Source of the DNA: an uncultured bacterium
Lineage (GTDB): Bacteria > Oederibacteriota > Oederibacteriia > Oederibacteriales > Oederibacteriaceae
Direction of reading: 5' to 3'
Length of the DNA stretch: 64,000 bases
Assembly (NCBI GenBank): GCA_965112635.1
Contig: OZ218778.1
Location: 2,784,001-2,848,000 of the forward strand
Below the pieces are notes generated by a model, which was given only the letters and a program-made list of their open reading frames with translations, had not been told where the DNA came from and made no database searches. Both the position numbers and the translations under genes were made by a program. This document shows, piece by piece, positions 42,844-61,244 of this stretch. Numbering within the stretch: the first letter of the stretch is position 1; each line of letters begins with the position of its first letter.

Positions 42844-42865
42844 AACCGTTCTCCTTTCCTGGGGG

Positions 42866-43529: not shown

Positions 43530-43547
43530 TCTGGCCCCAGGTTTTTT

Positions 43548-44321
43548 TTAACGCTGTTTGTCCGCGAAATCGAGCAGCGGCCTGAGTCCGAACAGGGGCC
43601 CGCTGTGGGCGAAAGCAAGGATCTTGATCTTATCGGCCATGGGCTTAAGTTTGTAAGCCAGGGCTTTGATCGACTGCTTGCTCTGGGCCTGGTTCTCGCA
43701 GAAAATGGCCTTGCTGGGAGTGACCTCGCCATCGCTGCTGGACCAGCAGCTGTCTCCCATGAACAAAACTCCGTTGGCAAAGAACACCATGCTCCCGGCG
43801 GTATGCCCCGGCACGCTGTGCACCTGCACGCTGACCTTCCCCACCCTGACCGGTTTGCCGTCCTTTAAGATATTCGTGACCTTAAAATTGGAAGGCTTTA
43901 AGAGCATAAGGAATGAGAACAATTTGACGGGTTTTTGCAGGCCTTCGGCAATAGGCTTGTCCACCTCGGAGCAGTATATCTTGGCTTTGGGGAACAAAGG
44001 ACAGGCGGCTGTATGGTCCCTGTCGCCGTGGGTCAGAAGCACTGCCTGGACATCCTCCGGTTTAAATCCTTTTGTTTGCAGGGCCGCCAGAATGGCTTTG
44101 CCTTGCGGGTCATTGCCCGCGTCGATCAGGGCGACCTTGTGTTTGCCGACATCGAACATAAAACAGCTCACGAAACCGTCCTTGATGGTCGTGGCAAACT
44201 GATTGAGCACCAAGCCGTCCGGGATGGGAGAATCCCCCATAAAGGTAACGAAAAAAATTGTCATTGGTAAAAGGATAAGGACCACTACTACCACAGCGAT
44301 CCAGATAATTACTTTGACCAT
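43548..44321 (-). CDS. Membrane-anchored MBL-fold metallo-hydrolase
   Basis: N-terminal TM helix, LIDAG, THGDRDH, PGHTAGS, LFMGD, AH. Confidence 0.88.
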   Translation of the reverse strand: MVKVIIWIAVVVVVLILLPMTIFFVTFMGDSPIPDGLVLNQFATTIKDGFVSCFMFDVGKHKVALIDAGNDPQGKAILAALQTKGFKPEDVQAVLLTHGDRDHTAACPLFPKAKIYCSEVDKPIAEGLQKPVKLFSFLMLLKPSNFKVTNILKDGKPVRVGKVSVQVHSVPGHTAGSMVFFANGVLFMGDSCWSSSDGEVTPSKAIFCENQAQSKQSIKALAYKLKPMADKIKILAFAHSGPLFGLRPLLDFADKQR

Positions 44322-44412
44322 TGTTCTTTCCTCCTATTGTTGTTGAGGTTCAACCTACCCCTGGGTAGGAAATAGTTTACCTCTTAACCTCATAGTTTTG
44401 GCCTCTTTTTCG

Positions 44413-45540
44413 TTACAATTTGCTTTTAGTAGCCAGCACTGTATTGGCCATATCAGTAACGAATTTGGCCTTGAGCAGGCCTTCGTCCCATTCACCCTGA
44501 GCCGTGGAATCCCACACAATACCGCCGCCAATACCCATCTCTCCCTCTCCATTCTGGATTAGTAGGGTGCGGATGGGGATATTAAAACACATGTCCCGGC
44601 CAGGGGTAATGTAACCGATAGCGCCGGTATAGATCTTTCTCTCCTCCCCTTCTAGTTCCCTGATGATTTGCATGGCCCGCATCCTGGGCGCGCCGGTCAC
44701 TGAGCCGGATGGGAACATGGCTCCGAACAGGCGGTAGAGCGGGATATCTTTTTCCACCCGGCCCGTGATGGTGGAGGTCATCTGGTAAAGGGTCTTGTAC
44801 CCGGCCACCTCAAAAAGCTTGGGCGCCCGGATCTGCGTACCTACCCTGCCCAAGTCGTTCCTCAAAAGGTCGGCGATCATCACGTTCTCCGCCCTGTTCT
44901 TTGCGTCAAATTTGAGGCGGAACCTGGCCAGAATATCGGCCAGCCAGTTTTGGCTGCGGGGCCAGGTTCCTTTCATAGGCTTGGTCAAGGCCCGTTGGCC
45001 TGTTTTTTTCAAAAATAACTCCGGGGACAGGGAAAGGATATGGAAATGCTCGGTCTCTATGGCGGCAGGATACGGCACAGGCTGTTCCCTCAATAGGGCA
45101 AGATAGAGAAACATAGGATCACCGCTAAAGCGGAACAAAAGCTTCAGGCAATAGGTGATCTGATAGACGTCACCGACCGCGATATAGTCATGGATCTTTT
45201 GGATATTGGCTGCGTAACGCTCTTTCGAAATATTCAGGCGTAGATCAGAAAGCACCCCCCGGGGCAAAGCGGGATCCGGAACCGGCCACGCTTTTTGGGC
45301 CTCCTTATAAATGCCCACCTGCAACAGAGGAAAATCATAGGTCTTGTCCTCAGACAGTTTTTCCTCAAAACAATAGCCTGCCTCATAGGAAAAAAATCCG
45401 GCCGCATAATACCCGGCGGACAGGGCCTGCTCTATTTCCTGGAAACAATGAGCAAAAGCGGAAGGATGCCGGCAGGAAACAACGAATTGGGGATTTTGGA
45501 AAAAAAGAGGTTTGTTTTCAAAACCTATGAATACGTTCAT
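44413..45540 (-). CDS. pabB: Aminodeoxychorismate synthase component I
   Basis: GDVYQ, SPELF, PMKGT, AENVMIADLLRNDLG, FPSGSVTGAP, YTGAIG. Confidence 0.85.
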   Translation of the reverse strand: MNVFIGFENKPLFFQNPQFVVSCRHPSAFAHCFQEIEQALSAGYYAAGFFSYEAGYCFEEKLSEDKTYDFPLLQVGIYKEAQKAWPVPDPALPRGVLSDLRLNISKERYAANIQKIHDYIAVGDVYQITYCLKLLFRFSGDPMFLYLALLREQPVPYPAAIETEHFHILSLSPELFLKKTGQRALTKPMKGTWPRSQNWLADILARFRLKFDAKNRAENVMIADLLRNDLGRVGTQIRAPKLFEVAGYKTLYQMTSTITGRVEKDIPLYRLFGAMFPSGSVTGAPRMRAMQIIRELEGEERKIYTGAIGYITPGRDMCFNIPIRTLLIQNGEGEMGIGGGIVWDSTAQGEWDEGLLKAKFVTDMANTVLATKSKL

Positions 45541-45819
45541 GACCCTTCCCTCTGGTCTGGGTGCCCTTTTGATATTGCAGGGCTGCAGATCATGACCGTA
45601 TCAGATTCAATTACTATACAATAAACTTACCGGCTTCCCACGCACAATAATTGTTTGAAATTATGAAATAATCAACAAAAAATGGAACTTTTTGAAATAT
45701 TTAATGTCTAATAAGTGTTAAATAATACAAGGGTGAGGTGTGCCTTTTTAATTTCTAACTTATTAAATTGTATCACCGATGATTCTAACCCATTGCACTC
45801 ACCAACGATGGCCAGGAAC

Positions 45820-45828
45820 TGGTATAAT
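45820..45828 (+). promoter_or_regulatory. Extended -10 promoter TGnTATAAT
   Basis: TGGTATAAT about 15 nt upstream of the structured leader. Confidence 0.55.
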
Positions 45829-45843
45829 TAACAGAAATTTAAC

Positions 45844-45990
45844 AAAATATCAAAGAACTAGCGAAAAGCCGATTGTGGATGTGAGTCCACGATGGGAGAG
45901 CTATCCGCCTGACACACCCTGAGCGGAATCTTCAAACAGGGCAGGAACTGTCAGACACAGGGGTATACCGAAAGGTTCTTTTTTATTTTT
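45844..45990 (+). ncRNA. Riboswitch-like structured leader RNA, copy 1 (family unassigned)
   Basis: Shares conserved junctions and covarying stems with 59941-60129 (-); ends directly before AGGAGG. Confidence 0.75.
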
Positions 45991-46003
45991 TAGGAGGTGT
46001 CCC

Positions 46004-47994
46004 ATAAGAAGCTTTTGCAATGGAAGATCCATACTAGCTGTCCTGCTAGCTCTGGCTTCCATGCTTTTAGTCACTTCCATGCAAGCCACCTGCACTCGGT
46101 CGGTCTATGTTTCTACCTTTGGCCAGCTGAATACGGCCATCCAAAACATCCAGAGTGGCGACTGTATCTACCTCAACCCGGGCGTCTACCATGTGACGGA
46201 GAACAGCCCGCTCAAGATAACCGGCGTCAATAATATTGTCCTCTCCAGCGCCACAGGCAACCCCGGCAGCGTGACCATCACGGGGGTCGGGTTTTGCGAC
46301 GACGGTTCTGCCGGCGCCTGCTCACCCCATCAGGGTGAGCAGAACAACGATTGCCTGTGGATCGGGTGTTGCTCTGGCAGCTGCAACTCAATCACCATCA
46401 CGGGTATCACCTTTACCGAGGACTGCTATGGCATCAAGGTCACCCCGCCGACCAACGACATCGAAATTCTTAACTGCCGGTTCATCAATTTTGGATACCG
46501 CTGTATTAAAGGAGTGGCCAGTGGTACTAATATTTTTGAAACGAACGGCCTGGTGCAAAACTGTTACTTTGAGGATAACAAGATCCCATCCTCCTGCTGG
46601 AATTCCGGCGGCGATTATATTGCCGGCATGGACATGATGTGGGACAACGGCTGGACCATTGAGGACAATACCTTTGTGAACATCAAAGGCTACGGGGGAG
46701 GCGCCCGGGCGGCTGTTTTTCTCTGGGTGGGATGTAAAAATTGTATTGTCCAAAGGAACAGGATGATCGGTTGCGACCGGGGTGTCGCGTTCGGCAACGC
46801 GAGCGGTTCTTTAAACGGCCAAAACCAGATCGCCCGCAACAACTACATCGTGGCCCCGGCCGATGACGCCATTGAGCTGGAGTCTGTGGACAGCTGCGGG
46901 GTTTACAATAATAGTTGCTATCTGCTGGATACATCCATCCGGGGTATCTATTGCGTCGTGGACAATCCCCATGTGACCAATACCAACATCCAGAACAACA
47001 TGCTGAACAACCTGACCAGCAATCCTGCCTGGACTATCCAGACCACGGGCCTGACCTCGGGGACCGTGAATAACAATGACAAAACCGCCCCTTTATACGA
47101 CTGGGTGGATCCCACCAACGGCAACCTGGATCTCACTTCTTTTGCGTCTGATGCCATCAGCCAGGGTATAAATTTGGCTGCAGTGACCCAGGATATTTAC
47201 CAGCAGCCGCGGCCAAACCCGCCCTGTATCGGCGCCGACGAATATATCCCCCCACTCCGACCCAGACTTTTACCCCTTCTTCGACCTCGACCATTGGCCC
47301 GTCCGCTACCACTACATCGACCCCTTCGGTCACCCTGACCCCGTCTCTGAGCGGCACTTCCACTTCGACCACTACCATTACCCTGACCTCTTCGCAAACC
47401 GTCACCCCTTCCTTGACCGGAACCTCCACGCTGACCCTGACTTCTTCCCAGACGGCTACCATTACAGAGACCTCATCGCAAACTTCGACACCTAGTCAGA
47501 CCCTAACCTCCTCTCAGACCACCACCCCTACGGTGACCGGATCCCAGACCGTGACCTCTTCTCAAACTCTGACTTCCTCGCAGACGGCCACCATCACCAA
47601 TACTCCTTACTTCACCCCGATCCCCTCCTCCACGCCGACCCCCAGCGGCCAACTGGCCATACTCCAGCACATCCCCTATCCTGACCCGTTGAAGCAGGGC
47701 AGCCTGGTCACGATATACCTTGAAATGTCAGATGTGCCCGACAGCATGTCCTTGACCCTGTATACGGTCTCAATGCGGGAGATCCGCAAGAGCACGACCG
47801 TCTCCCTCAATAGCTCCACGGGCTTGCAGGTCGTTTACGAGGGCGAAGTGGCTAACTATGCCTGCACGGTCGCCCTCGACCTGAAAGACGACCAGAACCA
47901 GGACCTGGCCAATGGACTTTACTATTACCAGATACAGGTGACCAAAGGCCCCAAGAAGGCCAAGGCCATAGGTAAATTAGTGGTCACCCGATAG
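46004..47994 (+). pseudogene. Secreted right-handed beta-helix protein with Thr linker and sorting domain, split by a frameshift at a C6 tract
   Basis: Track ORFs 46061-47338 and 47413-47994 join into one frame if one C is added at 47248-47253. Probable ATA start at 46004. Architecture matches the intact neighbour 48051-50096. Confidence 0.8.
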
Positions 47995-48050
47995 GCCGGC
48001 TTTGGGCGGCAACTGCCGCTGAGGCCTGCGCTCAGGAAGGAAGTCTTAAT

Positions 48051-50096
48051 TTGAACTTATCTCTGCGGATTCTCCTGTGCTTGGTTCTTTTTTCCACCCT
48101 TAGCCACCTTCACGCCCAAACCTTTCCCCCTTTTGCCCCGGCCCTGCCGGCGCCGTTACCACCCATCATCAACGTAAACAACATTAACGCCCTATACAAT
48201 GCGGTTAATACTGCGGCTTCTGGGACCACCATTTTAGTAGCCGACGGGATTTATAATCTAAATCCTAACTTGGGCGGCTTCATGGGTGCTCTGGATTTTA
48301 GAACACCTAATGTCACACTGCGCGGCGCTTCCGGGAACCGTGAAAAATGCATTATCACTGGAACCACCATGACGGATACCTCCGCTGCCAACACCGGAAT
48401 AGCCATTAAGATAGAGGCCAACAATATAACCATCGCCAACGTTACCGTCTGCAATGTGTACTTTCATGACATTCAATTTCCGGACGCTGTATCTGCCAAT
48501 AACGCCGATATCTACAACTGCTGGCTCAAGGACTCGGGCGAGATGCACATCAAAAGTTCCCAGGCCTGTACCGGCGTTTATTGCGACAACAATATCGTGG
48601 AGTGGAGCCGTCTCTCCTACACCACGACCGCCGCTACCACCCCTTATGGCAGTTGCTCGACATTCCCCTGCTATTACTATGACGCCATAGATGTCCATGC
48701 CGGCAACAATTGGATCGTCAGGCACAACTGGTTCGTGGACGAATACCCGGTTCCGGGTGACTGGGCAAATATGGATGGCATGACCAATCCGGCTATTCTT
48801 TTTTGGAACGGCTGTGAGAATCCGCTCGTGGACAGCAATGTTTTCATCAACTGCAGTTCAGGGGTCGCCTTCGGGCTCAACCAAAATAGTGGCTGCTTTA
48901 CCGGGGGCGGTTCCTACCGCACTACTGACGATTGCCATGGAGGGATCATCCGCAATAATTTCTTCTACCGTGACCCCGCCCTGACCGGGGACGTTGCCAT
49001 TTATGTATGCGGCGCCCCCAACGTTACTGTGGTGGGCAATACCATTATCCAGCCCGATGAGGGCACCACAGCCCATGGAGGCGACGATATGGAAACTAAT
49101 TACAACAACACTAAAAACGCTTATATTGTCAACAATCTGTGCTGTCTTACTCCCGTTGTCAACCGGAGTGGCTGTGCTAATTGCACGGAATTTAACAATA
49201 TAACCGGAGCCACCCTCGGTTGGCTCGTCAATGGGGGTGCCAATATCACCATAACGGGAGATTGCCATCTGGTTGCCTCAGATACCCTGGCCATTGACCA
49301 GGGATTCCCCCTGGCGGGATGGGACGACTTTGATATTTTTGGGAATTCCCGGCCACAAACCTGCTCCTGTGCCTGTTATGATATCGGTGCGAATGAGTAT
49401 ATTTGCGGCACCAGCACCCCGACCTATACGCGCACAATGACCTATACGCCAACAATGACCTCCACGCCTGCCCCGACATCCACAGCCACATTGACGCCAG
49501 CACCACCCACGCAAACGTCCACGATCACCCTGACGTCTTCACAAACATGTACGGTAAGCCAAACCTATACGGCTACAGAGACAGGGACGCCGGTCACCGG
49601 GACACCTACATCCACATCCACGGCCAGCGGTACGCCGACCTTTACATCGACAATCACCCCGACCCAACTCCCCTTCACGGCAACCCCTCTTTCCAGCAGC
49701 ACTCCCACAACGACCTTCACACCGACTTTTACACCAACAGCCTATATGAGCTTGAGTATTATCAAACTGCTGACCTACCCCAATCCGGTGAAGAACCAGA
49801 ACAGCCTGAACTTTTATATCAATCTCAGTGACATTCCGGATCGGATCGACATCAAGGTTTATACGACAGCCGCGCGATTAATCAGGGTCATGAACTCGGC
49901 GCAGACCAAGGCGCCCAACGGGGTTACTCTGGTAGAAGATATCTACAATGAGTGTACGTTTGCCTATTCCATTCCCTACGACCTTACAGATTGGGAAGGA
50001 AACTGGCTTGCTGACGGTATGTATTATTTCGTGGTCGAAGCCAGGAAGAGCGACACCACTGTGCGGGGCATTGGACGCTTTACCATACTGAAGTAG
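48051..50096 (+). CDS. Secreted right-handed beta-helix (pectin-lyase-like) protein with Thr linker and sorting domain
   Basis: Signal peptide, GTTILVADGIY, Asn-ladder repeats, DIGANEY, T/P linker, YPNP…LADGMYYF…GRFTILK. Confidence 0.85.
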   Translation: MNLSLRILLCLVLFSTLSHLHAQTFPPFAPALPAPLPPIINVNNINALYNAVNTAASGTTILVADGIYNLNPNLGGFMGALDFRTPNVTLRGASGNREKCIITGTTMTDTSAANTGIAIKIEANNITIANVTVCNVYFHDIQFPDAVSANNADIYNCWLKDSGEMHIKSSQACTGVYCDNNIVEWSRLSYTTTAATTPYGSCSTFPCYYYDAIDVHAGNNWIVRHNWFVDEYPVPGDWANMDGMTNPAILFWNGCENPLVDSNVFINCSSGVAFGLNQNSGCFTGGGSYRTTDDCHGGIIRNNFFYRDPALTGDVAIYVCGAPNVTVVGNTIIQPDEGTTAHGGDDMETNYNNTKNAYIVNNLCCLTPVVNRSGCANCTEFNNITGATLGWLVNGGANITITGDCHLVASDTLAIDQGFPLAGWDDFDIFGNSRPQTCSCACYDIGANEYICGTSTPTYTRTMTYTPTMTSTPAPTSTATLTPAPPTQTSTITLTSSQTCTVSQTYTATETGTPVTGTPTSTSTASGTPTFTSTITPTQLPFTATPLSSSTPTTTFTPTFTPTAYMSLSIIKLLTYPNPVKNQNSLNFYINLSDIPDRIDIKVYTTAARLIRVMNSAQTKAPNGVTLVEDIYNECTFAYSIPYDLTDWEGNWLADGMYYFVVEARKSDTTVRGIGRFTILK

Positions 50097-50177
50097 CCAA
50101 ACTATTCTCAAAAGTTTAATGGAAGAACTGGTCCATGCTTACATCTGTTTCTCGCAACCTAAAATCATAGAACTCCA

Positions 50178-51425
50178 TTACAAACCAATAAATTTGCCTG
50201 AAAAAGTTTCATGCTGAAGGAACGCTGTTTTTTCTACTTCGAAAACCCTTGCTAGTCGTTTCAGATAAATCGGATTTTCCAGGGTTTGTTTCTCCGGTGA
50301 ATCCGTGATTTTGCCGACCGGCTTGCCTTGGCAGTGGGTCATCTTGATGACGACCTGGATGGGCTGCAGCCCCATGTCATTGGTCAGGTTGGTGCCGATA
50401 CCGAAAGAGCAGTGTAACTTGTGATGGAATTTCTTGTAAATGCCAATTGCCCTGGGCACGTCCAACCCGTCGCTAAAGACCGCGGTCTTGGTTCTAGGAT
50501 CAATGCCCAGCTTGCGGTAATGCCTGATGATCTTAGTAGCCCAGGAAAACGGGTCGCCGGAATCCTGCCTGAGCCCGTCAAACCGTCTGGCCAGTTCCCC
50601 GTCAAAATCCCCCAGGAACGCATCCACCCCGATGACATCGGTCAGGGCGATCCCCAGCTTGCCCTGGTATTCCTGCAGCCAGGTCTTCAGGGCGAACTTC
50701 TGGCTCTGCCTGATCCCCACCAGGGCCTGGGGCGCTTCTAAAAATTCATGCGCCATGGTCCCCACCGGCCTCAGGCCATATCGCCAAGCCAGCAGGATAT
50801 TGCTCGTGCCGCTGAAATTCCGGGGTAGTTCCTTGGCCAGGGTTTCCACGACGCAGGCCTGCCACGCCCGGCTGAACCTCCGGCGCGTGCCGAATTCGCT
50901 GAATTTGAAATCTTCGGCCTTGAGCGCCTGGATCATTTTGACCTTGTTGGCCAGTCTTTTCTCCCCCTCCCGCCAAAATCCTTTTTCCTTTTTTCGGCTC
51001 AGGGACAACAGGTGTTCGTAATAACAGCGTATCACCGCGTCCAGCACAGGGACTTCGAACAAAATGGTGCGCAGCCAAGGGCCTTGGATCAATATCCCTA
51101 AGCCTCCGTCTTTGTCCTGGCTGATCCGGATATGCCGGCATTTGAGCTTGAACCCCCTGAGGAAAGCAAGGAAATCATCACGGAAAAAACCGAGGCTTTT
51201 GAGGTGGTTGATTTCGGCATCCGTGAGGGTCAGCCCGCAAAGCTTTTCGATCTCGCGGCGGACCGCTCCGACGATGGGAGAAAAATTCACGCCCGGTGTA
51301 CGGCAGCGGAAAGCGAACCCCGCGTCCACTTCGGGGAAACGGCGGTAAACCACCTGCATCATGGTGAACTTATAAAGGTCCGTGTCCAGCAAGGAATCTT
51401 TGAGGGCGGGCAGAGCGGATTTCAT
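50178..51425 (-). CDS. pncB: Nicotinate phosphoribosyltransferase
   Basis: ATG 51425; SLLDTDLYKFTM, EFGTRRR, GTMAHE, RQDSGDP, FSDGL, FGIGT. Confidence 0.95.
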   Translation of the reverse strand: MKSALPALKDSLLDTDLYKFTMMQVVYRRFPEVDAGFAFRCRTPGVNFSPIVGAVRREIEKLCGLTLTDAEINHLKSLGFFRDDFLAFLRGFKLKCRHIRISQDKDGGLGILIQGPWLRTILFEVPVLDAVIRCYYEHLLSLSRKKEKGFWREGEKRLANKVKMIQALKAEDFKFSEFGTRRRFSRAWQACVVETLAKELPRNFSGTSNILLAWRYGLRPVGTMAHEFLEAPQALVGIRQSQKFALKTWLQEYQGKLGIALTDVIGVDAFLGDFDGELARRFDGLRQDSGDPFSWATKIIRHYRKLGIDPRTKTAVFSDGLDVPRAIGIYKKFHHKLHCSFGIGTNLTNDMGLQPIQVVIKMTHCQGKPVGKITDSPEKQTLENPIYLKRLARVFEVEKTAFLQHETFSGKFIGL

Positions 51426-51426
51426 C

Positions 51427-52071
51427 TCAAGCCTGGCTGAGTTCTGAGGAACTCTGGACGATCCGGGCGCCCCCTGACCGCATCTCTTCGATTGCTTTTT
51501 GGGTCGTATCCGGGCTGATGCCGCGGCAGGCGGCCAGGTTGACAACAACGCTGAACCCGGCTTTTAAAAGCTGGAGGACGGTGTTCTTGACGCAATAGTC
51601 CGTGGCCAGCCCTCCCGCAAGAATGGCCTTGATCCCTTTGATCTTTAGGAATTCGATCACTCCGGTGGACTGGCGGTCCTTGAGGTCATGAAAACAGGCC
51701 CCGTAGGGGTGCATATGGTTTTCCACCCCTTTATAAACCATAAAATCATACTCCTCAGGGGCGGGCAGCCCGTCCAAAAGTTCATGGCCCCTGGTCCCCA
51801 CTTCGCAGTGTCTATTCCAGCGGATATCGGAGTTGGGTAATCCCACCTGGGAATATTGGGGCTTGTCCGGCGTGGCCACCCAGACCGCGTTGGGGTTATG
51901 GCAGTCTTTGGAAGCCACCCTCAGGCTGGCCAAATGGGCTTGCCGGTTGAGCTCTTCTCCGATCTTTTCCCCTTCCGGTACCGGTAGTTCATCCGGGCAG
52001 AGCGGGGTAAAACCTTTTTGGCAGTCCACGTCAAAAGCTGCTGTGGTGCGCTTGTCGATTTTAATGGCCAT
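51427..52071 (-). CDS. pncA: Nicotinamidase
   Basis: DVDCQKGF, KDCH, WNRHC, KG, GLATDYCV; adjacent to pncB. Confidence 0.92.
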   Translation of the reverse strand: MAIKIDKRTTAAFDVDCQKGFTPLCPDELPVPEGEKIGEELNRQAHLASLRVASKDCHNPNAVWVATPDKPQYSQVGLPNSDIRWNRHCEVGTRGHELLDGLPAPEEYDFMVYKGVENHMHPYGACFHDLKDRQSTGVIEFLKIKGIKAILAGGLATDYCVKNTVLQLLKAGFSVVVNLAACRGISPDTTQKAIEEMRSGGARIVQSSSELSQA

Positions 52072-52146
52072 GGTGCTCCCTCAACTTCTTAAAATAAGGA
52101 CATTCTCTAACATCGGGATAAATCTCGGGGAACTGCCGGTAAAGAA

Positions 52147-53214
52147 CTAATTATTGGGGAGGTTTTTTTTCTTTTCCAGTTGATCCTTGATAGCACTGAT
52201 AACCGCGTTGGCTTGATGGGTAACCCTCGGTGGCAGCACTTCATGGGTCAAAGGCACCGGCATTTCAGGACCATCCTCGCTCATCACGAAAATGACCCCC
52301 AAAGAACCCAGGATATTACCAAACTGATTTTTTACTGGGAAAACCCTGACTCGTAACCAGGAAAAAACAGCTTTGTCGCTTTTAATATTGAGGTCAAAGG
52401 GTTCCACGGGAAGGTCCAAACCATCTCTCAAAGCCGGCAGCAGAGGTTCTAACACTTCCACATCCTTGATCTCACGATCCAAAATATCCCTGCGCTTGGT
52501 GCCGAAAACAGCCTCGGCATCCTTGTTGAAATATCGGACCCTGAAATTGCTGTCCATCATGACCAGGGCCACGGGTATGGCGCCCAGAACACTCTCAAAG
52601 AACTGCGACATGGCCTGCATGTCCTCCGAGGTCTTTTTGAGCTTGTTCGTCAAAGCGCCTTTGCTGGCCTCCAAGGTCTTGCGCCGCACGATTTCCACCT
52701 GGGTTTCCTGGACCAGGATGCTGGAATGCAGGCTGAGGATGAGGATAAAGGGCAGTTCCAGCAAGTCCTGGGGTTTGACATAATCAAACCCTTGGGGAGT
52801 ATAGATCTTGCAGGCCAAGTACACCCCGGCCACGACGACCGAAGTCAGGCAGGTGTACCAGAATTTTTGGGCCACCGCCGCGATGAAAATGGAAAGGAAA
52901 ATGGCCGCCAGAAGAAAACTCTGCACCTGGTTCATCACCCAGAGGGACAGAAGGATAAAACTAAGGTCGAAAAGGAACATGATATAGCAGAATTTCAGGC
53001 CTTCGAAAAACCGGGACGGCAGCAGCGCCGTCACGATCTGGCTCCCGAGATAAACGACTGCCAGTACTGCCGCGACCCAGAGAATGGCCTGTCCCTCTTG
53101 CCAACGGATGAAAAAATCCACGGCCAGCCACAGCAGCACCACCCAGCGGATGGCGAAAAATCTGCTCTTTCTTTGGAGGTCTACGACTTCTCCTTCAGTT
53201 TTCTCCTCTGACAT
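52147..53214 (-). CDS. Polytopic membrane protein with coiled coil and PAS domain
   Basis: About six TM helices, then SVLGAIPVALVMMD…YFNKDAEAVFG…PVKNQFGNILG; no output domain. Confidence 0.75.
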   Translation of the reverse strand: MSEEKTEGEVVDLQRKSRFFAIRWVVLLWLAVDFFIRWQEGQAILWVAAVLAVVYLGSQIVTALLPSRFFEGLKFCYIMFLFDLSFILLSLWVMNQVQSFLLAAIFLSIFIAAVAQKFWYTCLTSVVVAGVYLACKIYTPQGFDYVKPQDLLELPFILILSLHSSILVQETQVEIVRRKTLEASKGALTNKLKKTSEDMQAMSQFFESVLGAIPVALVMMDSNFRVRYFNKDAEAVFGTKRRDILDREIKDVEVLEPLLPALRDGLDLPVEPFDLNIKSDKAVFSWLRVRVFPVKNQFGNILGSLGVIFVMSEDGPEMPVPLTHEVLPPRVTHQANAVISAIKDQLEKKKNLPNN

Positions 53215-53307
53215 TTCCGCTCTCCCTTTTCTCTAGGCCTGGAAATATTCAACCCAGTTAATAATAGGTGATTTATCAGGGTTTGTCACGCCTGGGGGTA
53301 TCACCGG

Positions 53308-53976
53308 TCAAACGCGTCCCCCGAAGATCCCGCGGCCGATCCGGATTACATTGGCTCCCTCGGCCAAAGCCGCCTCAAAATCATCGGTCATTCCCATGGA
53401 GAGATAAGGAAGGGACAAGCCAAGATTCCGTTCGATTTTTTCTTTTAATTCGCGCATTTGCCGGAAATAAGGCCTGGCCGACTCAGGGTTTCCCGTCAAA
53501 GGAGCCACGGTCATTAGCCCCGTAAAAGATAGGTATTTAAAGCCAAGGGCTTGGCGTAGCAACTCCTGGGCCTGGTCGGGCCTGACCCCGCTTTTGCTCT
53601 GCTCGCCGGCAATATTGATTTCCAAAAGACAAACGAGCTTTTTCCCCAGCACTTCGGCTTCCCTCTCCAGCATCTCGGCTAGCCTCAGGCTGTCCACGGA
53701 CTCAATCCAGTCAAAAAGTTTGACCGCCATTTTCACCTTATTGGTCTGCAAATGGCCGATCAAGTGCTTTTCCACGCTGGCCCCGGCCAGCAGATCGAAC
53801 TTTTGCCTGGCCTCCTGGACCCTGTTTTCCCCGACCGCCGTGACTCCCGCCTCAAGGGCTTCTTTGATCCTCTCCGCGGGAACGGTCTTGGTCACAGCCA
53901 CCAGCTTGACCTCCCGGATGGTGCCCTTTTTTATCTTTGCCTGGAGAACGGACAGGTTCTCTTTAATCTGGCTCAT
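53308..53976 (-). CDS. yggS: PLP homeostasis protein
   Basis: LVAVTKT, GENRVQE, HLIGHLQTNK, LSMGM, RIGRGIFG; ATG 53976. Confidence 0.95.
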   Translation of the reverse strand: MSQIKENLSVLQAKIKKGTIREVKLVAVTKTVPAERIKEALEAGVTAVGENRVQEARQKFDLLAGASVEKHLIGHLQTNKVKMAVKLFDWIESVDSLRLAEMLEREAEVLGKKLVCLLEINIAGEQSKSGVRPDQAQELLRQALGFKYLSFTGLMTVAPLTGNPESARPYFRQMRELKEKIERNLGLSLPYLSMGMTDDFEAALAEGANVIRIGRGIFGGRV

Positions 53977-54776
53977 AACAGCCCCGCGTAAGCGATCATG
54001 CGGCCGGCCTTGCCCTGGTCCCGGCGGTGGGAAAAGAAAAGGTCTTTCCTGCAGCTCGTGCACAACCCCGTGCTGAAAATTCTTTCCTCTTTGACTGACA
54101 TATCCCGGAGCTGCCATACGTTGGCCAGGATCAGGTCCAGCCGGGGATTAACGTAAGAGGGATGGGTGAACAAATTGTCCGCGTAGGGGAAATGCTTTTG
54201 GAAAAGGGCCACGACTTCCGGGCCGACCTGCAGACAGCATTTCCCGATGCAGGGACCCAAACCGACCAGGCAGTCGCTGAATTTGGTGAAAAAATGCTCT
54301 TTCATAGCCAGTAAAGCCTGCTGGCCAACCTGCGCCAGGGTACCCCGCCAGCCGGCGTGGACTTGGGCCAGGGCTTTGTGCACGGGGTCGTAGATAGTGA
54401 TGGGCAAACAGTCGGCAATGGACACCGTGAGCAACACACCCCTTGTTTGGGTGATAAGCGCGTCCCCTGTGCCGGCGTTAATCGTTTCGCCCCGCACGGA
54501 AAGCACTTTGCAGCCGTGGACCTGGTCCATCTTGACCAACCGCTCCGGCGGATACCCGATGGCCTTGGCTAGCCTTAGCCGGTTCTCTTCCACGGACTTT
54601 GTCTCTGCCGGGTTGTCGGAAACTTTAAAGGACAGGTTCAGGGAATCATAAGGAGCCTGGCTCACCCCTCCCACCCGCGTGGTATATCCATGGACCAGGC
54701 CGGGAACCTGGGAAAGTTCGGGCAGGTTGACGAGCGTCAACCCGTTGGCCTGCTCCAGCTCAAAAGCCGTCAACAC
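53973..54776 (-). CDS. pgeF: PgeF/YfiH polyphenol-oxidase-like protein
   Basis: TTRVGGVS, QVHG, ADC, HAGWRG, CTSC..FFSHR. Confidence 0.93.
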   Translation of the reverse strand: MLTAFELEQANGLTLVNLPELSQVPGLVHGYTTRVGGVSQAPYDSLNLSFKVSDNPAETKSVEENRLRLAKAIGYPPERLVKMDQVHGCKVLSVRGETINAGTGDALITQTRGVLLTVSIADCLPITIYDPVHKALAQVHAGWRGTLAQVGQQALLAMKEHFFTKFSDCLVGLGPCIGKCCLQVGPEVVALFQKHFPYADNLFTHPSYVNPRLDLILANVWQLRDMSVKEERIFSTGLCTSCRKDLFFSHRRDQGKAGRMIAYAGLL

Positions 54777-54791
54777 CCAGCCTCCTTTTGG

Positions 54792-55895
54792 TCAGTGGCC
54801 GTCAGGACAGGTGGAAGAGGGGGTGCATTGGGTTTTGGCCGGATGCCCAAAACCAGTGGACTGGATGACCCCCATCATGTTGATGATGGTGTTGATATCC
54901 CCGGTATCGCTGGAATCGTGCTTGGCGTGCTTGCAATGGTCGTTGAGCTTGGCGTACACCCTTGCTTTTTCTTTTTCCAGCCATTCCTGCTGCTCCTGTG
55001 TGGCAGTTGTTATTTTGGCCTTGAGCCCTTCAATCTGGTCCGCGCGCTGCTGGTTCACGCTGTAACTATCCGCGATGGCCTGCTTGATGGTGTCATTGAG
55101 TTCCCGCTGGTGGGTCAAAAGGTCCATGTCCTCTTCCGTGATATCGGTGTCCGGCAGGATGTTCCATTTCTTCTCTTCCTCCTGGTCTATCCTGGCCGTC
55201 ATTAACCGGGAAAGGTCCTTGTAGGACTGGGGATTGTTCTTGTCCATTTTCTGGATCTCGTCCTTGATCCAGTCCCCGCTTCCCTTGTGCTGCTCAGGGA
55301 TGAGGTCCTTGACCGCTCCGGCTACATCCTTTAGCTTCATCACCTTGGACCCCGCAGCGCCTACGATAAGTTCGCCTCCGGCCTCGCCTCCGGATTTAGC
55401 CGTATCCAGGGCGTCATAGGTCACATAGACCAGCCGGCAAAAGGCTTTGACCAGGTTCTTTTTGATGCCCTGGGACAACGCGTTCTGGAAATCCTTCATC
55501 TGGAGCCGCTTTTGGCGGTCTGTCTCCATGAGCGCCGAAAGGTAGGCTATCTCCTCGTTATATCCCCTGATGTCAATGCCGTTTTCCGCGTACTGCTGCG
55601 CGTCCCAACTCCGCTCGCCCACAGGTATCCTGTCATCTATGTCTGAATATTTTATCCACTCTTTCTCAAAAACCTCCTTGTCCACGCACTGGTCCTTGTC
55701 CAGGATCGCAAAACCGCTCCCTGTAGAGTTTTCCGCTCCCTGGGTTTCATCCGGTTGGTAGGGCCCGTTGTCCAATTGTTCGTTGGTGACCTTAGCCGGG
55801 GACTGTCCGGGATTTGAATCCTCGATCTGCTGGGCCATAGCCGTCGTCCCTGCCCAAAACCCTACTGCCATAAAAACAAATAAAGTCCTTTTCAT
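54792..55895 (-). CDS. Hypothetical exported helical protein
   Basis: GGAGG RBS, signal peptide, acidic coiled-coil body, terminal CTPSSTCPDGH. Confidence 0.75.
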   Translation of the reverse strand: MKRTLFVFMAVGFWAGTTAMAQQIEDSNPGQSPAKVTNEQLDNGPYQPDETQGAENSTGSGFAILDKDQCVDKEVFEKEWIKYSDIDDRIPVGERSWDAQQYAENGIDIRGYNEEIAYLSALMETDRQKRLQMKDFQNALSQGIKKNLVKAFCRLVYVTYDALDTAKSGGEAGGELIVGAAGSKVMKLKDVAGAVKDLIPEQHKGSGDWIKDEIQKMDKNNPQSYKDLSRLMTARIDQEEEKKWNILPDTDITEEDMDLLTHQRELNDTIKQAIADSYSVNQQRADQIEGLKAKITTATQEQQEWLEKEKARVYAKLNDHCKHAKHDSSDTGDINTIINMMGVIQSTGFGHPAKTQCTPSSTCPDGH

Positions 55896-56080
55896 AGGAT
55901 CCTCCCTAAAAAAGAATAGTCATCTAAATCATTACCACAAAAACTGTTTTTCCTCCACCAGCCAGTATTACTGCTTTCCCTTCGGAAAAAACCCAGATTT
56001 GGCCTTCAATCGCCTTTGTTATGTACGTTTCCGCTCGAAGGCGATCGCGTCAAACAGTCCGTTTGACGGGACATTAAATT

Positions 56081-57397
56081 CTAAACCTTGAACATTGAAC
56101 CTTTTTTACCCTTCATCTGCTTCATCATTTTTTGGGCCTCAAAAAACTGCTTGAGCAGGCGGTTGACCTCCTCGACGCTGGTGCCCGAACCAAGGGCGAT
56201 GCGGCTGCGCCGCCTGCCGTTGATCTGGCTGGGATTGTTCCTTTCGAATGGCGTCATGGATAGGATCATGGCCTCGGTTTTTTTCATCTGTTTCTCGGCC
56301 TGCGCCTCGTCCACCTGGGGCATGGCCTGGCCCATTCCGGGTATCATAGATACCAGGTCCGACAAAGGCCCCATTTTTTTGATCATCCGGATCTGTTTCA
56401 TGAAATCGTCCAGGGTAAAAGCGTCCTTCCTGAACTTTTGTTCCAGATCCTCGATCTCCTGCTGCTGGACCGTTTCCTGGACTTTTTCCACCAGGGACAG
56501 GACATCTCCCCTGTTCAAAATGCGGCCCGCCAATCGGTCCGGATAAAAAGGTTCCAGGTTGTCCGCCTTTTCGCCCATTCCCGCGAACCAGATGGGCACT
56601 TGGCAGGTGGTGGTCACGGAAAGGGCGGCGCCGCCCTTGCTGTCGCCGTCCAGTTTGGTGAGGATGACGCCGTCGATGCCCACCTTTTCCTTGAAAACCT
56701 TGGCCTGGTTGACCGCGTCCTGCCCGGTCATGGCATCTAAGACCAAAATGACGTAGTGGGGCTTGAGTTTTTCCTTAGCCTCCACGAGCTCAGCCATCAG
56801 TGCTTCGTCCACATGCAGCCTGCCGGCAGTGTCCAGGATCAGGATTTCCGCGGCTTTTTTAGCGGCCTCTTCCCTGGCCAGGGCTGCCACCCCGACGGGC
56901 GTGCTGGCCAAACAGGGGGTAAAAGGGATGTCCATCTGCTTGCCCAAGATCTCCAGCTGGTCCTGGGCCGCGGGCCTTTGCAGGTCCATGGAAAGCAAAA
57001 GCACGGTCTTACCTTTTTTGTTCTTGTAGTAGTGGGCCAGCTTGGCGCAGGTCGTGGTCTTGCCGCTGCCCTGAAGACCGACCAGCATGAAAACGGTGGG
57101 AGGCTGGGAGGCCAGATAAATCTCGGCCTTATGCTTGCCGAGGAGTTCGACGATCTCGTCATGGACGATCTTGAGGAATTGCTGTCCGGGGGTCAGGCTG
57201 TCCCAGACCGCCTGGCCTAGGGCTTTTTGCTTGACCCGTTCCACGAACTCCTTGACCACGGAGTAGTGGACGTCGGCTTCCAAAAGCGCCAGACGTACGT
57301 CCCTGAGGGCGTCCTTGATGTTCTTTTCGCTTATCTTGCCCTGGCCTGAAAGGTTTTTCAGAAGGCTCTGGAATCGCTGGCTCAGGACCTCGAACAT
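56081..57397 (-). CDS. ffh: Signal recognition particle protein
   Basis: ALLEADV, GLQGSGKTT, DTAGR, TKLDGD, M-domain RRSRIALGSG. Confidence 0.98.
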   Translation of the reverse strand: MFEVLSQRFQSLLKNLSGQGKISEKNIKDALRDVRLALLEADVHYSVVKEFVERVKQKALGQAVWDSLTPGQQFLKIVHDEIVELLGKHKAEIYLASQPPTVFMLVGLQGSGKTTTCAKLAHYYKNKKGKTVLLLSMDLQRPAAQDQLEILGKQMDIPFTPCLASTPVGVAALAREEAAKKAAEILILDTAGRLHVDEALMAELVEAKEKLKPHYVILVLDAMTGQDAVNQAKVFKEKVGIDGVILTKLDGDSKGGAALSVTTTCQVPIWFAGMGEKADNLEPFYPDRLAGRILNRGDVLSLVEKVQETVQQQEIEDLEQKFRKDAFTLDDFMKQIRMIKKMGPLSDLVSMIPGMGQAMPQVDEAQAEKQMKKTEAMILSMTPFERNNPSQINGRRRSRIALGSGTSVEEVNRLLKQFFEAQKMMKQMKGKKGSMFKV

Positions 57398-57400
57398 GGG

Positions 57401-58057
57401 CTACCTGCCCCAGGCCTGCTGGCCGCACTTCCTGAGGCCGTCGATGGTGCGCCGCATGTTCTTTTGGGTGAAAAGAAAATGGCCCACCACAAAAACGTTG
57501 GCCCCCGCTTCAGCGGTACATTGGGCTGTTTCATAATTAATGCCGCCGTCCACTTCGATATCCCCGGGATAGATGGCGCGCAGTTGTTTGATCTTGGGCA
57601 GGACGGCCTTGATGAATTTTTGGCCGCCAAACCCTGGTTCTACGGTCATGACCATGACCTGGTCCGCCAGGGGAAGCCATTTTTTTATGGCGGATAAAGG
57701 CGCCTTAGGTCGCAGGGAAAGCCCGGCCTTGGCTCCTGTGGCCTTGATGGCTCTTAAGGTGGCCCCGACAGAGGAGCAGGCCTCGGCGTGCACGATCATA
57801 TGCGACGCACCGGCCGCCCTGAAACGCCTGACATACCGGATGGGTTCCTGGATCATCAGGTGCACGTCCAGCGGCCTGACGGCGTATTTTTTGAGGGAAG
57901 CCAGCACGGGCATGCCGATGGTAATGTTGGGCACGAACAGCCCGTCCATCACGTCCACATGGATGTAATCAGCCCCGGCTTTTTCCGCCCTCCATACTTC
58001 CTGTCCCAGGCGGCTGAAATCAGAGGCCAGGATAGACGCGGCGACTTTGATCTTCAA
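57401..58057 (-). CDS. rpe: Ribulose-phosphate 3-epimerase
   Basis: HVDVMDG.FVPN, DVHLM, MTVEPGFGGQ, VDGG. Confidence 0.96.
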   Translation of the reverse strand: MKIKVAASILASDFSRLGQEVWRAEKAGADYIHVDVMDGLFVPNITIGMPVLASLKKYAVRPLDVHLMIQEPIRYVRRFRAAGASHMIVHAEACSSVGATLRAIKATGAKAGLSLRPKAPLSAIKKWLPLADQVMVMTVEPGFGGQKFIKAVLPKIKQLRAIYPGDIEVDGGINYETAQCTAEAGANVFVVGHFLFTQKNMRRTIDGLRKCGQQAWGR

Positions 58058-58141
58058 GGATTCCTTCTTCTTTGGCAGAATTTAGAGCCACGAAGGCCCG
58101 GAGGCGGCTACGCCTCTTGGATGAGATTATATCAGGAAGGG

Positions 58142-59917
58142 TTAGAAATTTTTGCCGAATAGTTTGGTGATAAAAAAGTCCCTGTCGCCGCAGGTCTTTT
58201 CCACCTGCGGGTCTTCAAAAGCCTTGGCAATAAGCTCCCTTACATGTTCGGGATTTCTGGTATATTTTAGGATGTTTTCCTTGGCGATCTCCGGCTCATA
58301 AAGGGCCACATGCATGAGGTTGAGCCCCACGGTGAACTCGATGCTCTGGAACATGCAATAGCGCAGTAGAATACCCACCTTTCTTTTGGATAACCTGTAA
58401 GGCGGGGTCAGGCCGTTGGCCATGCTGAAAAAGAAATCCATGTAGTCCTTGACCGCCTCTTCCCTGCTGGCGCCGTCCGCCATATCCGAAGACACGGCCA
58501 TGGTAAATTTCTTTTCCGCCCCCGTCCATTTGACCTGGGTTTTCTTTTCTATCCTGCCGGCGTATTCGCCGATAAAAGTGCCCACGTTCATATTTCCGCG
58601 GTAGTCAAAAAGGTCGTCCTTGCTCAAGTACTGGCCGCAGGCCCTCAGAACCAATATCTCCACCGGGGTAAGAGAAATTTTAGGGCCCTTGAGGGGGGAA
58701 TCCCCGCTGACAAAGGATATGACGAATCGGTCGTCAAAAAATTCCACGTAATTACGTACCGGTTCTATGAGAATGGGGGGCACGATGAAATTGCCGTAAT
58801 CGTCCTTGGGAAAGACATTGATATGGATGGCGCCGATCTTTTCAATGGCTGCCACGAGGTGCATGGGCGTCACCAATCTGTCCTTGGGTGTTCCGTCAAA
58901 ACCTTTCCACTGGTCCGCGACCAGGACACGGGACGCGCTATAAGGCATCTTGTTCTCGTTGGCTTCCGCGGCGCGGACTACAAAAGACGCCACCGTGTCG
59001 GCATCGATCCTGATGGTGTCGATGACCTGGGGGTCGAATACAGTCGTGGCCTCTGAACCGGAGGCCAGTTTTTCCAGGTCTTCCAGGCAGCGCTTCACCT
59101 CTTTGAACTTGGACTCAATGTTCTGGCCTGCTTTGACCAGCTCCTGGCCTGTGGCCTCCAGCTGGCTGCCCAAAGAAGAAACGGAATTGATGAGCGTCGG
59201 CAGTTTATCCCCAAAGGCATTCCTAACTTTTAATTCGGCGGCAGAGGGGTCGCCAGCTTGGCCGGCCAGATCGCTGAACTTTTTGAGCATTTCCACATTG
59301 AATTTCAGCCCCCGCAAGAGCTGTTCATCCCGCACTGAGGCAAAGCCGGCCACAGGTCCGGCTTCCAGGCCAGCCAGTTGTTCTTTGAAAGCGGCGGCCA
59401 TGGTTTCCAGCCGTTCTTTGACCTTTTCCTTCATCTGGCCCGCGCCCAAGGGAGCAGCGGGCTTGGGCCGGCGCCGGTTCTGCCGGGGGTCCAACCCAAC
59501 GACCTCGCCCCGGGCAATGGCAAAGACGCGGTCTTCCATGTCCAGGATCGGGGCTGCCCAGGCGGGCCTTTTCTTCTTTTCCTCGCGGGCATTGACCAGT
59601 AATTCATACATATTGGGCGACATGAGGTCGACCTCAAAAGATTTGCCGTTTTGGTTCACCTTAATCTTGGAGCCAAAGGCACCGGTGGACAGGAAGATCC
59701 ATTGGGCATCGTTGAGATCAGGGAGTTTTTGGGTCAGAAGCCATTTTTGCAGTTGGGCGAAAGCAGCCCTGAGCTTGATGGCTTTGTTCTGGTCGTCGTC
59801 GGAATGTTTGGAGGGTGCGGCGTACACGGCCAGGGCGTCCTGCACCGTTTTGACCATCTCCGGGTCCGCGCCGGCTATCACTTCTTCAAAAGCGTTCAGT
59901 CCTTTTTTATCTAACAC
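58142..59917 (-). CDS. Hypothetical cytoplasmic protein with central coiled coil
   Basis: 591-aa ORF, GTG start after a purine-rich RBS, no recognised motif; preceded by RNA element copy 2. Confidence 0.8.
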   Translation of the reverse strand: MLDKKGLNAFEEVIAGADPEMVKTVQDALAVYAAPSKHSDDDQNKAIKLRAAFAQLQKWLLTQKLPDLNDAQWIFLSTGAFGSKIKVNQNGKSFEVDLMSPNMYELLVNAREEKKKRPAWAAPILDMEDRVFAIARGEVVGLDPRQNRRRPKPAAPLGAGQMKEKVKERLETMAAAFKEQLAGLEAGPVAGFASVRDEQLLRGLKFNVEMLKKFSDLAGQAGDPSAAELKVRNAFGDKLPTLINSVSSLGSQLEATGQELVKAGQNIESKFKEVKRCLEDLEKLASGSEATTVFDPQVIDTIRIDADTVASFVVRAAEANENKMPYSASRVLVADQWKGFDGTPKDRLVTPMHLVAAIEKIGAIHINVFPKDDYGNFIVPPILIEPVRNYVEFFDDRFVISFVSGDSPLKGPKISLTPVEILVLRACGQYLSKDDLFDYRGNMNVGTFIGEYAGRIEKKTQVKWTGAEKKFTMAVSSDMADGASREEAVKDYMDFFFSMANGLTPPYRLSKRKVGILLRYCMFQSIEFTVGLNLMHVALYEPEIAKENILKYTRNPEHVRELIAKAFEDPQVEKTCGDRDFFITKLFGKNF

Positions 59918-59940
59918 AGCTTTTCCTTCCTCACAGGGGT

Positions 59941-60129
59941 AAAAAATAAAAAAAGAACATTTCGGTATGCTCCTTGTTCCTTAAACGGCGTTGTTTTACC
60001 GGAGACCTGAGAACTTCCCCGCAACCCGTTCTTTAAGCTGAAAAAGCTTTGTGGCTTTTTTCAGCAGGAGGTTAGCTTTCCCACCCAGACTTTCATCTGA
60101 GCCGGCTTTTCGCTTGTTCTTTCTATTTT
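59941..60129 (-). ncRNA. Riboswitch-like structured leader RNA, copy 2 (family unassigned)
   Basis: Minus strand reads AAAAUAGAAAGAACAAGCGAAAAGCCG-GCUCAGAU GAAA GUCUGGGU-GGGAAAGCUA…GGAGCAUACCGAAAUGUUCUUUUUUUAUUUU, homologous to copy 1. Confidence 0.75.
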
Positions 60130-60137
60130 CCCGGCCG

Positions 60138-60167
60138 ATTCTAAAAATGATTGACCGGGTGTTTCAA
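60138..60167 (-). promoter_or_regulatory. Candidate sigma70 promoter for the copy-2 leader
   Basis: Minus strand TTGAAA-N18-TAGAAT ending about 8 nt before the element. Confidence 0.45.
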
Positions 60168-60305
60168 ATTTGAGTATTTTACAACAATGCTCGAACTTGT
60201 CTAGATGTTTTTTAGGAAAAAACGAAAACTGGTACTATTTTTCAGAGGAACGGCTCAGCTCGTGATCCAGCTTGGAGTTAATGGACTGTGGATTAATCCG
60301 GGGTT

Positions 60306-61244
60306 TTAAAAATTTTTTTTAGCCATTCTAAGGACCTGTTCATAGGAGCGCACATTACCGCTGGCTCCCAAACCCATGACGCAATGGGCTCCGGTAGCGT
60401 TGCCCATGACCAGGGATTTCTTCAGGTCCCACCTTTTTAATATCCCGGTCCAAAATCCGGCGTCCCAATTGTCTCCCGCACCCGTCGCGTCAACCGCCTT
60501 GACCAGGAAAACCGGCTCAAAGAACTTGGAACCGTTCTTGTCAACGGCAAAACAACCTTTGGAACCCATTTTCAGGATGACCGCTTTTTGGACGCCGTAC
60601 TTCAAGGCCGCTTTGACGATATCCTTGGGCTGGCTGAGACCGAAGATTCTTTTGGCTTCCTCTAAACTGGGCATAAAATAATCCACGAATTTAAGACAAG
60701 GCGTCAGTCCCTTCCACTGGTTGCTGGGGTCCCAGCAGGTATCCAGCCCCGTGATCAATCCAAGTTTTTTGGCTCTTTTTAAAAGACGGGCCGTGGGAGC
60801 GCCGTCAAGGCGCGGCATCAGGAAAAATCCCGAAACATGGATGGCCCGGTACCCCTTGAGCACGCTGTCGGGGATATGCTTGTCGGTCAGCAAGGCGCTT
60901 GCGCCGATGGTATGCAGAAAGCTCCGCTCGCCATCGCTGTGGACCGTCACCAGGGTCGCCGAGCTGTGGATCTGGGAAAAGCGCACCGTGTTCTTAGTGA
61001 ACACGCCTTCTTCATTCAACCGCTTGAGCAGAAAATCGCCGAATCCATCGTTACCCACCCCGGTGACGATCCCGGCCTTCATCCCCAGCCGCGACAGACC
61101 GATAGAGGTGTTCACCGCGCAACCGCCGGAAAATAGCCCGATCTTCGCCACCAGCTGGAGCTGTCCCCGCTTAGGCAGCGTTTTGACCGGCTGGGCCAGC
61201 GAATCTGCCACCGCGTTGCCGACGCATAAAATATCCCTCGCCAT
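60306..61244 (-). CDS. PfkB-family carbohydrate kinase
   Basis: GGCAVNT, VGNDGFG, GERSF, DATGAGD. Confidence 0.93.
   Translation of the reverse strand: MARDILCVGNAVADSLAQPVKTLPKRGQLQLVAKIGLFSGGCAVNTSIGLSRLGMKAGIVTGVGNDGFGDFLLKRLNEEGVFTKNTVRFSQIHSSATLVTVHSDGERSFLHTIGASALLTDKHIPDSVLKGYRAIHVSGFFLMPRLDGAPTARLLKRAKKLGLITGLDTCWDPSNQWKGLTPCLKFVDYFMPSLEEAKRIFGLSQPKDIVKAALKYGVQKAVILKMGSKGCFAVDKNGSKFFEPVFLVKAVDATGAGDNWDAGFWTGILKRWDLKKSLVMGNATGAHCVMGLGASGNVRSYEQVLRMAKKNF

Follow-up and report, generated by a model that had tools for sequence, protein, structure and literature searches.

A Probable Diverged c-di-GMP-I (GEMM-I) Aptamer in the 5′ Leader of a 591-Residue Protein Gene of an Uncultured Oederibacteriota Bacterium

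Introduction

The 5′ leader of a gene for a 591-amino-acid (591-aa) protein in an uncultured bacterium of the Oederibacteriota is probably a strongly diverged c-di-GMP-I (GEMM-I) aptamer that would control this gene in cis. To judge from sequence and comparative structure, the ligand would be c-di-GMP or a very close relative. GEMM-I is described in an excerpt of PMC4744006 as a helix, P1, that closes two adjacent stem-loops, P2 and P3. The leader is the second of two copies of an RNA element in the 64,000-nucleotide stretch of DNA analyzed here (the window), and the element occurs ten times in the genome of the organism. Eight of these leaders precede genes for secreted proteins, surface proteins or proteins of unknown function, including the non-secreted 591-aa protein behind copy 2, and two precede STAS regulators. 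Database thresholds can conceal a whole c-di-GMP regulon, here a probable one of ten leaders, in a little-studied lineage.

Here, we describe the architecture of the copy 2 leader, the comparative evidence for its fold, its kinship to and departures from canonical GEMM-I, the genes that follow the ten leaders, and a model of control. Coordinates are positions of the window unless a genome position is named, and features lie on the reverse (−) strand unless stated otherwise.

Location and Architecture of the Leader

A search of the 64-kb window with the covariance model R2 returned exactly two matches: copy 2 at 59942-60122 (94.4 bits), and copy 1 at 45852-45991 on the forward (+) strand (91.8 bits), upstream of a secreted-protein operon. 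Non-standard pairs were flagged in neither. Since both copies are matched by one model, the conserved core that an earlier, sequence-only reading of this DNA had seen in the two copies is borne out. The aptamer domain of copy 2, measured from the 5′ strand to the 3′ strand of P1, occupies 59952-60122 and forms a GEMM-I-like three-helix junction according to R2 and covariation. Its segments follow one another in the order P1, a J1/2 joining segment that ends in G, a GNRA-capped P2, a two-nucleotide J2/3 that begins with A, P3, and a 3′ core in which an unpaired C precedes the two top pairs of P1. In P3, the proximal helix is bulged and the distal part is free in length.

The 5′ strand of P1, AAAGAAC (60116-60122), pairs with 59952-59958 in a duplex of −6.4 kcal/mol when taken alone, and in six of the seven P1 pairs both bases vary among the copies. 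The top two P1 pairs are formed by CG, whose partner is 59963-59964, and this CG together with the J1/2 sequence AAAAG occupies 60106-60112; the CG:CG pairing is present in 100% of the alignment cells. The last G of J1/2 (60106) is the equivalent of G20 in Vc2, the reference GEMM-I RNA of Vibrio cholerae, and falls in alignment column 19, which is G in 11 of 11 sequences. The P2 hairpin (60080-60105) carries a GAAA loop of the GNRA type at 60091-60094, eight of its ten pairs vary on both sides, and a G (60082) stands at the position of Vc2 C44. The J2/3 junction is AA (60078-60079), of which 60079 corresponds to Vc2 A47 (column 49, A in 11 of 11).

The 5′ strand of proximal P3 (60070-60077) reads AGCU, two bulged A residues and CC, and its partner is 59967-59973; this proximal helix (helix 4) is paired in 96.8% of the cells and has one compensatory change, in copy c8. 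Distal P3 spans 96 nt (59974-60069) and holds an insert hairpin, a second AAAGAAC and a second branched hairpin before it ends in a conserved ACAA bulge (59974-59977), the C of which is present in 11 of 11 sequences. The following segment, 59963-59973, comprises the 3′ strand of proximal P3, then A-C, and lastly the CG that forms the top of P1; the C at 59965 corresponds to Vc2 C92 (column 163, C in 11 of 11). The 3′ strand of P1, GUUCUUU (59952-59958), runs straight into a U-tract, the two together covering 59941-59958, with the U-tract itself at 59941-59954 made up of seven U, one A and six U.

The insert hairpin is specific to copy 2 and lies at 60037-60065 (leader positions 71-99), where a 12-nt arm, a 6-nt loop and an 11-nt arm are found with one unpaired A; the second AAAGAAC lies at 60028-60034, also inside distal P3. 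An insert with its own hairpin and a repeated AAAGAAC had been reported by the sequence-only reading, and both parts were located. The reading had also put the variable region of copy 2 at about 40 nt longer than that of copy 1, which agrees with the 43-nt difference between the 96-nt distal P3 of copy 2 and the 53-nt distal P3 of copy 1. It had further taken the tolerated insertion to mark P3 as peripheral, and the insert indeed sits in distal P3, which is 17 to 96 nt long in the 11 sequences.

The signals expected around the leader by the same reading were likewise found. Downstream, beyond the U-tract, a purine-rich ribosome-binding site (59924-59930) and the GTG start codon of the 591-aa gene (59915-59917) together span 59915-59930. 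Upstream, a promoter-like site, TTGAAA with an 18-nt spacer and TAGAAT (60167-60138, that is, 60138-60167 on the − strand), agrees with the consensus at 10 of 12 positions and is a candidate only. A second promoter-like site occurs at 60176-60203, and three such sites were found in the region against 0.3 expected.

Elsewhere in the window, two repeat families were observed. Two tandem 63-nt copies that are 95% identical lie at 37815-37940 (family D8), and a roughly 189-nt repeat is present seven times at 281-1446, its copies being 60-76% identical (family D1). The latter repeat probably encodes a repeat protein on one strand.

Copies in the Genome and Comparative Support for the Fold

A blastn search of the whole genome (2.88 Mb, one contig) recovered five further copies, and a covariance model built from seven copies gave 11 matches in the genome, of which ten were kept (c1 to c10). 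The eleventh, at genome positions 535210-535309 with 29 bits, lies within an ORF that looks like a helicase by its translation, was dropped by a better model, and is treated as false. All ten copies are followed by an ORF on the same strand, which starts −19 to +135 nt from where the element ends. The earlier proposal that one element is common to a set of genes therefore stands, with ten copies in the genome.

Covariation was assessed in an alignment of the ten copies and one relative (n = 11), for which the structure was specified by hand; the top two P1 pairs and the proximal P3 helix had been left out of the model that built the alignment. Standard pairs occupy 92.7% of the cells, and 15 of the 25 pairs are changed on both sides. 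None of 500 shuffles was as good, and when the pairing partners were slid, at most 48% of the cells were paired. Folding of single sequences gave z = −2.54 for copy 2, with 2 of 200 shuffles as good, and only z = −1.60 for copy 1, with 15 of 200 shuffles as good. The real support for the fold is comparative, and it is this comparative pairing evidence that upholds the view of the element as a structured 5′ leader RNA.

Kinship to c-di-GMP-I Riboswitches

At the Rfam gathering scores, no match was obtained in the window. Copy 2 scanned alone against Rfam with E-values up to 10 gave no match to any GEMM family, and the scans of single copies returned matches at chance level only. When the ten copies were scanned together, the near-matches were c-di-GMP-I and c-di-GMP-I-GGC only. 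The best among the copies for c-di-GMP-I (RF01051) was c10, with 26.1 bits against a gathering score of 35, and one copy of the ten, c6, matched c-di-GMP-I-GGC (RF03167) with 17.9 bits against a gathering score of 59. In both near-matches, the alignment extends over the full model and keeps the helices P1, P2 and P3 in register. That all ten copies fall below the RF01051 gathering score counts against the GEMM-I reading; canonical GEMM-I was not detected above the cut-off anywhere in the genome. For c-di-GMP-II (RF01786), no match was found on any copy with E-values up to 10, nor any above the cut-off genome-wide. Away from the copies, two sub-threshold matches were seen, one to c-di-GMP-II at genome positions 1468706-1468774 (25.8 bits against 53.5) and one to c-di-GMP-I at genome positions 1326412-1326499 (18.5 bits).

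In the reverse test, R2 matched 7 of the 12 loci of the phylum that hold RF01051, with 16.8-38.8 bits and E-values down to 6e-10; within its own class, its scores are 54-99 bits. The element had been regarded as an unclassified RNA in the sequence-only reading, and this reciprocal similarity of covariance models identifies it instead as a diverged relative of GEMM-I. Conserved parts of the fold agree with this kinship. P2 ends in a GNRA loop in 11 of 11 sequences (GAAA in copy 2), and the equivalents of G20, A47 and C92, the contact nucleotides of Vc2 as named in an excerpt of PMC4744006, are G, A and C, respectively, in 11 of 11; the equivalent positions were assigned through cmscan alignments and the list of features in that excerpt. 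A receptor-like CCUAA...UAUGG for the tetraloop was recognized by eye in c10 only, and none was identified in the expanded P3 of copy 2. The genome has the machinery of c-di-GMP signaling, with 11 GGDEF, three HD_5 (HD-GYP-type) and 17 PilZ matches, and no match to EAL. A search of the literature returned nothing relevant on riboswitches in Firestonebacteria or on c-di-GMP riboswitches of Elusimicrobi.

Genes Behind the Leaders

Behind c1 and c3 are secreted proteins with alike starts; the product of the c3 gene has the Pfam domains Beta_helix and CBM_11, and the proteins of the c1 operon have no Pfam family. The genes behind c4 and c5 encode paralogues of about 912 aa that carry signal peptides, three small exported proteins follow c6, giant ORFs of more than 2,006 aa and more than 1,687 aa follow c7 and c8, respectively, and c9 and c10 precede genes for STAS-domain proteins.

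The c4 gene is split into overlapping ORFs of 221 and 693 aa (genome positions 212780-215160; locus L002:3124-5504), and its c5 paralogue is a single 912-aa ORF with the same N-terminus; the split probably reflects a frameshift, which would mean either a pseudogene or an assembly error. In the first gene after copy 1, the earliest ATG, GTG or TTG is at 46061, within the apparent signal peptide, and an in-frame ATA at 46004, 6 nt after AGGAGG, would complete this peptide. By its sequence, the start of this gene may be non-canonical.

The gene behind copy 2 (58142-59917) begins with GTG, encodes 591 aa, and is followed by ribulose-phosphate epimerase-like and Ffh-like genes. Its product has no Pfam family and no signal peptide by eye, and single-copy homologues are present in 66 of the 98 other genomes of the phylum. 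Matches to the protein in the Atlas are weak. The model of the whole protein (pLDDT 81) has a long helical hairpin at its center and a conserved domain at its C-terminus; the best Foldseek E-value for this model was 0.2, and VIA matched its central coiled coil only, with a Z of about 11. For a separate model of the C-terminal domain (pLDDT 74), the best Foldseek E-value was 1.4, and the best VIA matches were zincin-type metallopeptidase folds with Z-scores of 6.4, 5.1 and 4.7, which lie within the noise range of the tool; no HExxH motif was seen by eye in the 591-aa sequence.

At the 11 best homologue loci of the 591-aa gene, the leader is absent (0 of 11 with the variant model at E-values up to 1), and Rfam riboswitches were found at none of them. 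The sequence-only reading had held that homologues lacking a conserved leader would speak against the element, and such homologues are exactly what these 11 loci contain. They indicate that the pairing of leader and gene is specific to the source genome, and they are no argument that the RNA is unreal. The element would tie a phylum-wide gene to c-di-GMP signaling in this one organism.

Distribution in the Phylum and in Public Collections

When 99 genomes of the phylum were searched with the variant model at E-values up to 0.01, matches were obtained in five. The source genome has ten, three metagenome-assembled Ca. Firestonebacteria genomes of one genus have one, two and one, and the fifth genome has one weak match of 28.4 bits. 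A strict IUPAC pattern, by which diverged relatives would be missed, was scanned over all species-representative genomes and JGI metagenome contigs and gave 46 stretches in genomes and 58 in metagenomes; the model confirms three and two of these, respectively, all of the Firestonebacteria type, and the remaining stretches are about as numerous as estimated for chance.

Canonical GEMM-I exceeds the cut-off in 10 of the 99 genomes, including the three Firestonebacteria genomes, where it occurs at other loci. In seven of the nine canonical loci checked (L034-L037, L039-L041), the ORF that follows shares its conserved N-terminus with a pilB/mshE-type ATPase, and Pfam confirmed T2SSE and MshEN in both ATPase loci tested, L034 and L036. 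MshEN itself is a c-di-GMP-binding module. Unlike the canonical loci there, the Firestonebacteria variants precede GAF-PAS genes.

A Model of Control

Two layouts are found at the 3′ end of the element. In c1-c5 (5 of 5), which include copy 2, and in 4 of 4 Firestonebacteria sequences, the 3′ strand of P1 abuts a run of six to nine U residues, with six or seven of them after GUUC in c1-c5, and six-T runs start at only 0.0015 of the positions of the genome. The distance from the U-tract to the start codon is 5 to about 60 nt (about 25-60 nt in the Firestonebacteria). This conserved abutment of P1 and U-tract, together with the variable distance to the start, argues for transcription termination over masking of the ribosome-binding site. 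In c6-c8, the last 7-19 nt of the element overlap the ORF, whose start codon sits in the 3′ strand of P1, 7-8 nt behind a conserved purine run of the 3′ core.

We propose that binding of the ligand would close the weak, AU-rich P1. In c1-c5, copy 2 among them, the closed P1 that abuts the U-tract would serve as the stem of a terminator and turn the gene off. In c6-c8, the 3′ core would act as the Shine-Dalgarno sequence and the start codon would lie in the 3′ strand of P1, so that binding would block translation by direct occlusion. Both layouts would lead to the same outcome, namely a gene that is off once the ligand closes P1; of all steps in the model, we are least certain of this direction of control, in which high c-di-GMP turns the gene off.

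P1 alone is weak, with −4.4 to −4.8 kcal/mol for the 7-nt strands, which counts against the terminator step. A search for classical terminators, defined as a G+C-rich hairpin with a loop of 3-8 nt and a U-tract, found no site in 59800-60330, a further point against this step, and the helix that abuts the U-tract of copy 2 is the AU-rich P1 that encloses the whole aptamer. Over 40000-59999, classical terminators are not enriched (30 against 25.1 ± 4.9 expected). A ligand-stabilized terminator is treated as hypothetical and kinetically unlikely in an excerpt of a 2024 review (PMC10907184). In the 221-nt leader of copy 2, the unconstrained minimum is −63.6 kcal/mol and the aptamer fold is −58.8 kcal/mol, that is, 4.8 kcal/mol above the minimum, which counts against the GEMM-I reading as a whole. 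An extension of P1 by pairing of the A-rich upstream flank with the U-tract was considered and rejected, as this flank pairs no better than shuffled or non-cognate ones, with 10 to 144 of 200 shuffles as good.

Departures from Canonical GEMM-I and Alternative Readings

The variants depart from canonical GEMM-I where P2 meets P3. The C44-G83 interhelical Watson–Crick pair, which an excerpt of PMC4744006 calls universally conserved, is not kept in the variants. G occupies position 44 in 14 of 14 variants, versus C in 10 of 10 parsed canonical sequences of the phylum (an eleventh was unparsed), and the 3′ bulge of P3 has a conserved C (11 of 11) versus G at the G83 position of canonical sequences. 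To judge by the identity of these bases, G44 and the bulge C could form a reversed interhelical pair. In Vc2, G83C and the C44G/G83C swap both showed no detectable binding according to an excerpt of PMC11705072, and it is mainly because the swap loses binding that we are cautious about the ligand. In addition, the internal loop of P2 is shrunk to a single facing G/G, and the second nucleotide of J2/3 (column 50) is G in 7 of 11 sequences and A in 4 of 11.

Such departures could be the mark of a GEMM-I-derived fold that binds another cyclic dinucleotide or a related nucleotide, with the rebuilt P2-P3 interface and J2/3 constituting a separate specificity class. The invariance of G44 across the 14 variants, the lone G/G in P2, the frequent G in J2/3 (7 of 11) and the loss of c-di-GMP binding by the swapped Vc2 (excerpt of PMC11705072) all fit a changed ligand, as does the coexistence of canonical and variant aptamers in the three Firestonebacteria genomes at different loci and before different genes. 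We nevertheless hold a changed ligand to be unlikely: the three base-specific contact positions are unchanged (11 of 11), the known switch to cGAMP involves G20A in an excerpt of PMC7288161 whereas G20 is kept here, and enzymes and receptors of c-di-GMP are abundant in the genome. The leader might also have ceased to sense a small molecule at all and persist as a protein-bound relic of GEMM-I, a constitutive attenuator or an element of RNA stability. The defining tertiary pair has been lost as such and P1 with its U-tract could terminate constitutively, but contact positions and junctions are strictly kept while the helices diverged by compensatory changes, which implies selection on the binding pocket, and ten copies have been maintained; a leader without a ligand is accordingly quite improbable.

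The sequence-only reading had seen in the duplicated AAAGAAC a switch within an unclassified RNA class, with the second AAAGAAC of the insert competing with the 5′ strand of P1 for GUUCUUU. The 7-mer is present (60028-60034) and can pair with the 3′ strand of P1 in a fold of −56.8 kcal/mol, but this fold lies 6.8 kcal/mol above the minimum and 2.0 kcal/mol above the aptamer fold, so that the switch is energetically unfavored relative to both. It is also specific to copy 2: just one of the five U-tract copies has the 7-mer, only two of the five have an internal partner that equals P1, and the best internal partner in copy 2 is a different segment. Moreover, AAAGAAC is common in the window (31 matches against 8.3 expected), and the RNA is related to GEMM-I. 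We regard this switch as highly improbable. Our preferred reading remains that of a strongly diverged c-di-GMP-I aptamer. Whether the variants would deserve the rank of a separate GEMM-I-derived class, with the P2-P3 interface rebuilt through G44 and the bulge C and with the ligand-closed P1 itself as the terminator stem, seems doubtful to us; a shift of ligand specificity in such a class would be a further possibility.

Comparison with Known Systems

As natural variants, these leaders test how far the tertiary interface of GEMM-I is dispensable or replaceable, at the very position where the swap in Vc2 fails. Their compact layouts, with P1 fused to the U-tract or with an aptamer that contains both ribosome-binding site and start codon, are also handy material for the study of 'direct' riboswitch mechanisms.

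The closest known system is c-di-GMP-I (RF01051, with Vc2 as its representative), with which the variants share the three-way junction of P1, a GNRA-capped P2 and a P3 with a bulge, a J1/2 that ends in G20, a J2/3 that starts with A47, and a 3′ core of U-A/G-C-C-G in which the C92 equivalent is unpaired. Both also serve as 5′ leaders of genes for surface or secreted proteins and of signaling genes. Unlike RF01051, the variants have a 2-nt bulge in proximal P3 and no separate expression platform, as P1 borders on the U-tract or the aptamer itself holds the ribosome-binding site and start codon. The c-di-GMP-I-GGC family (RF03167), which we take to be a binding-site variant of GEMM-I, belongs with RF01051 to clan CL00126, and its alignment with c6 is full-length and includes P1; its consensus J2/3 is G-A, whereas that of the variants is A-G or A-A. 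The cGAMP-sensing GEMM-I riboswitches of the G20A type share the scaffold, and small changes re-target it according to excerpts of PMC7266159 and PMC7288161, but the equivalent of G20 is G in 11 of 11 variants. Direct-occlusion riboswitches such as SAM-II and some preQ1-I (excerpt of PMC10907184) are pseudoknot aptamers for other ligands, and the ribosome-binding site of copy 2 comes after the U-tract; the likeness to them lies in c6-c8, where the aptamer includes both the ribosome-binding site and the start codon.
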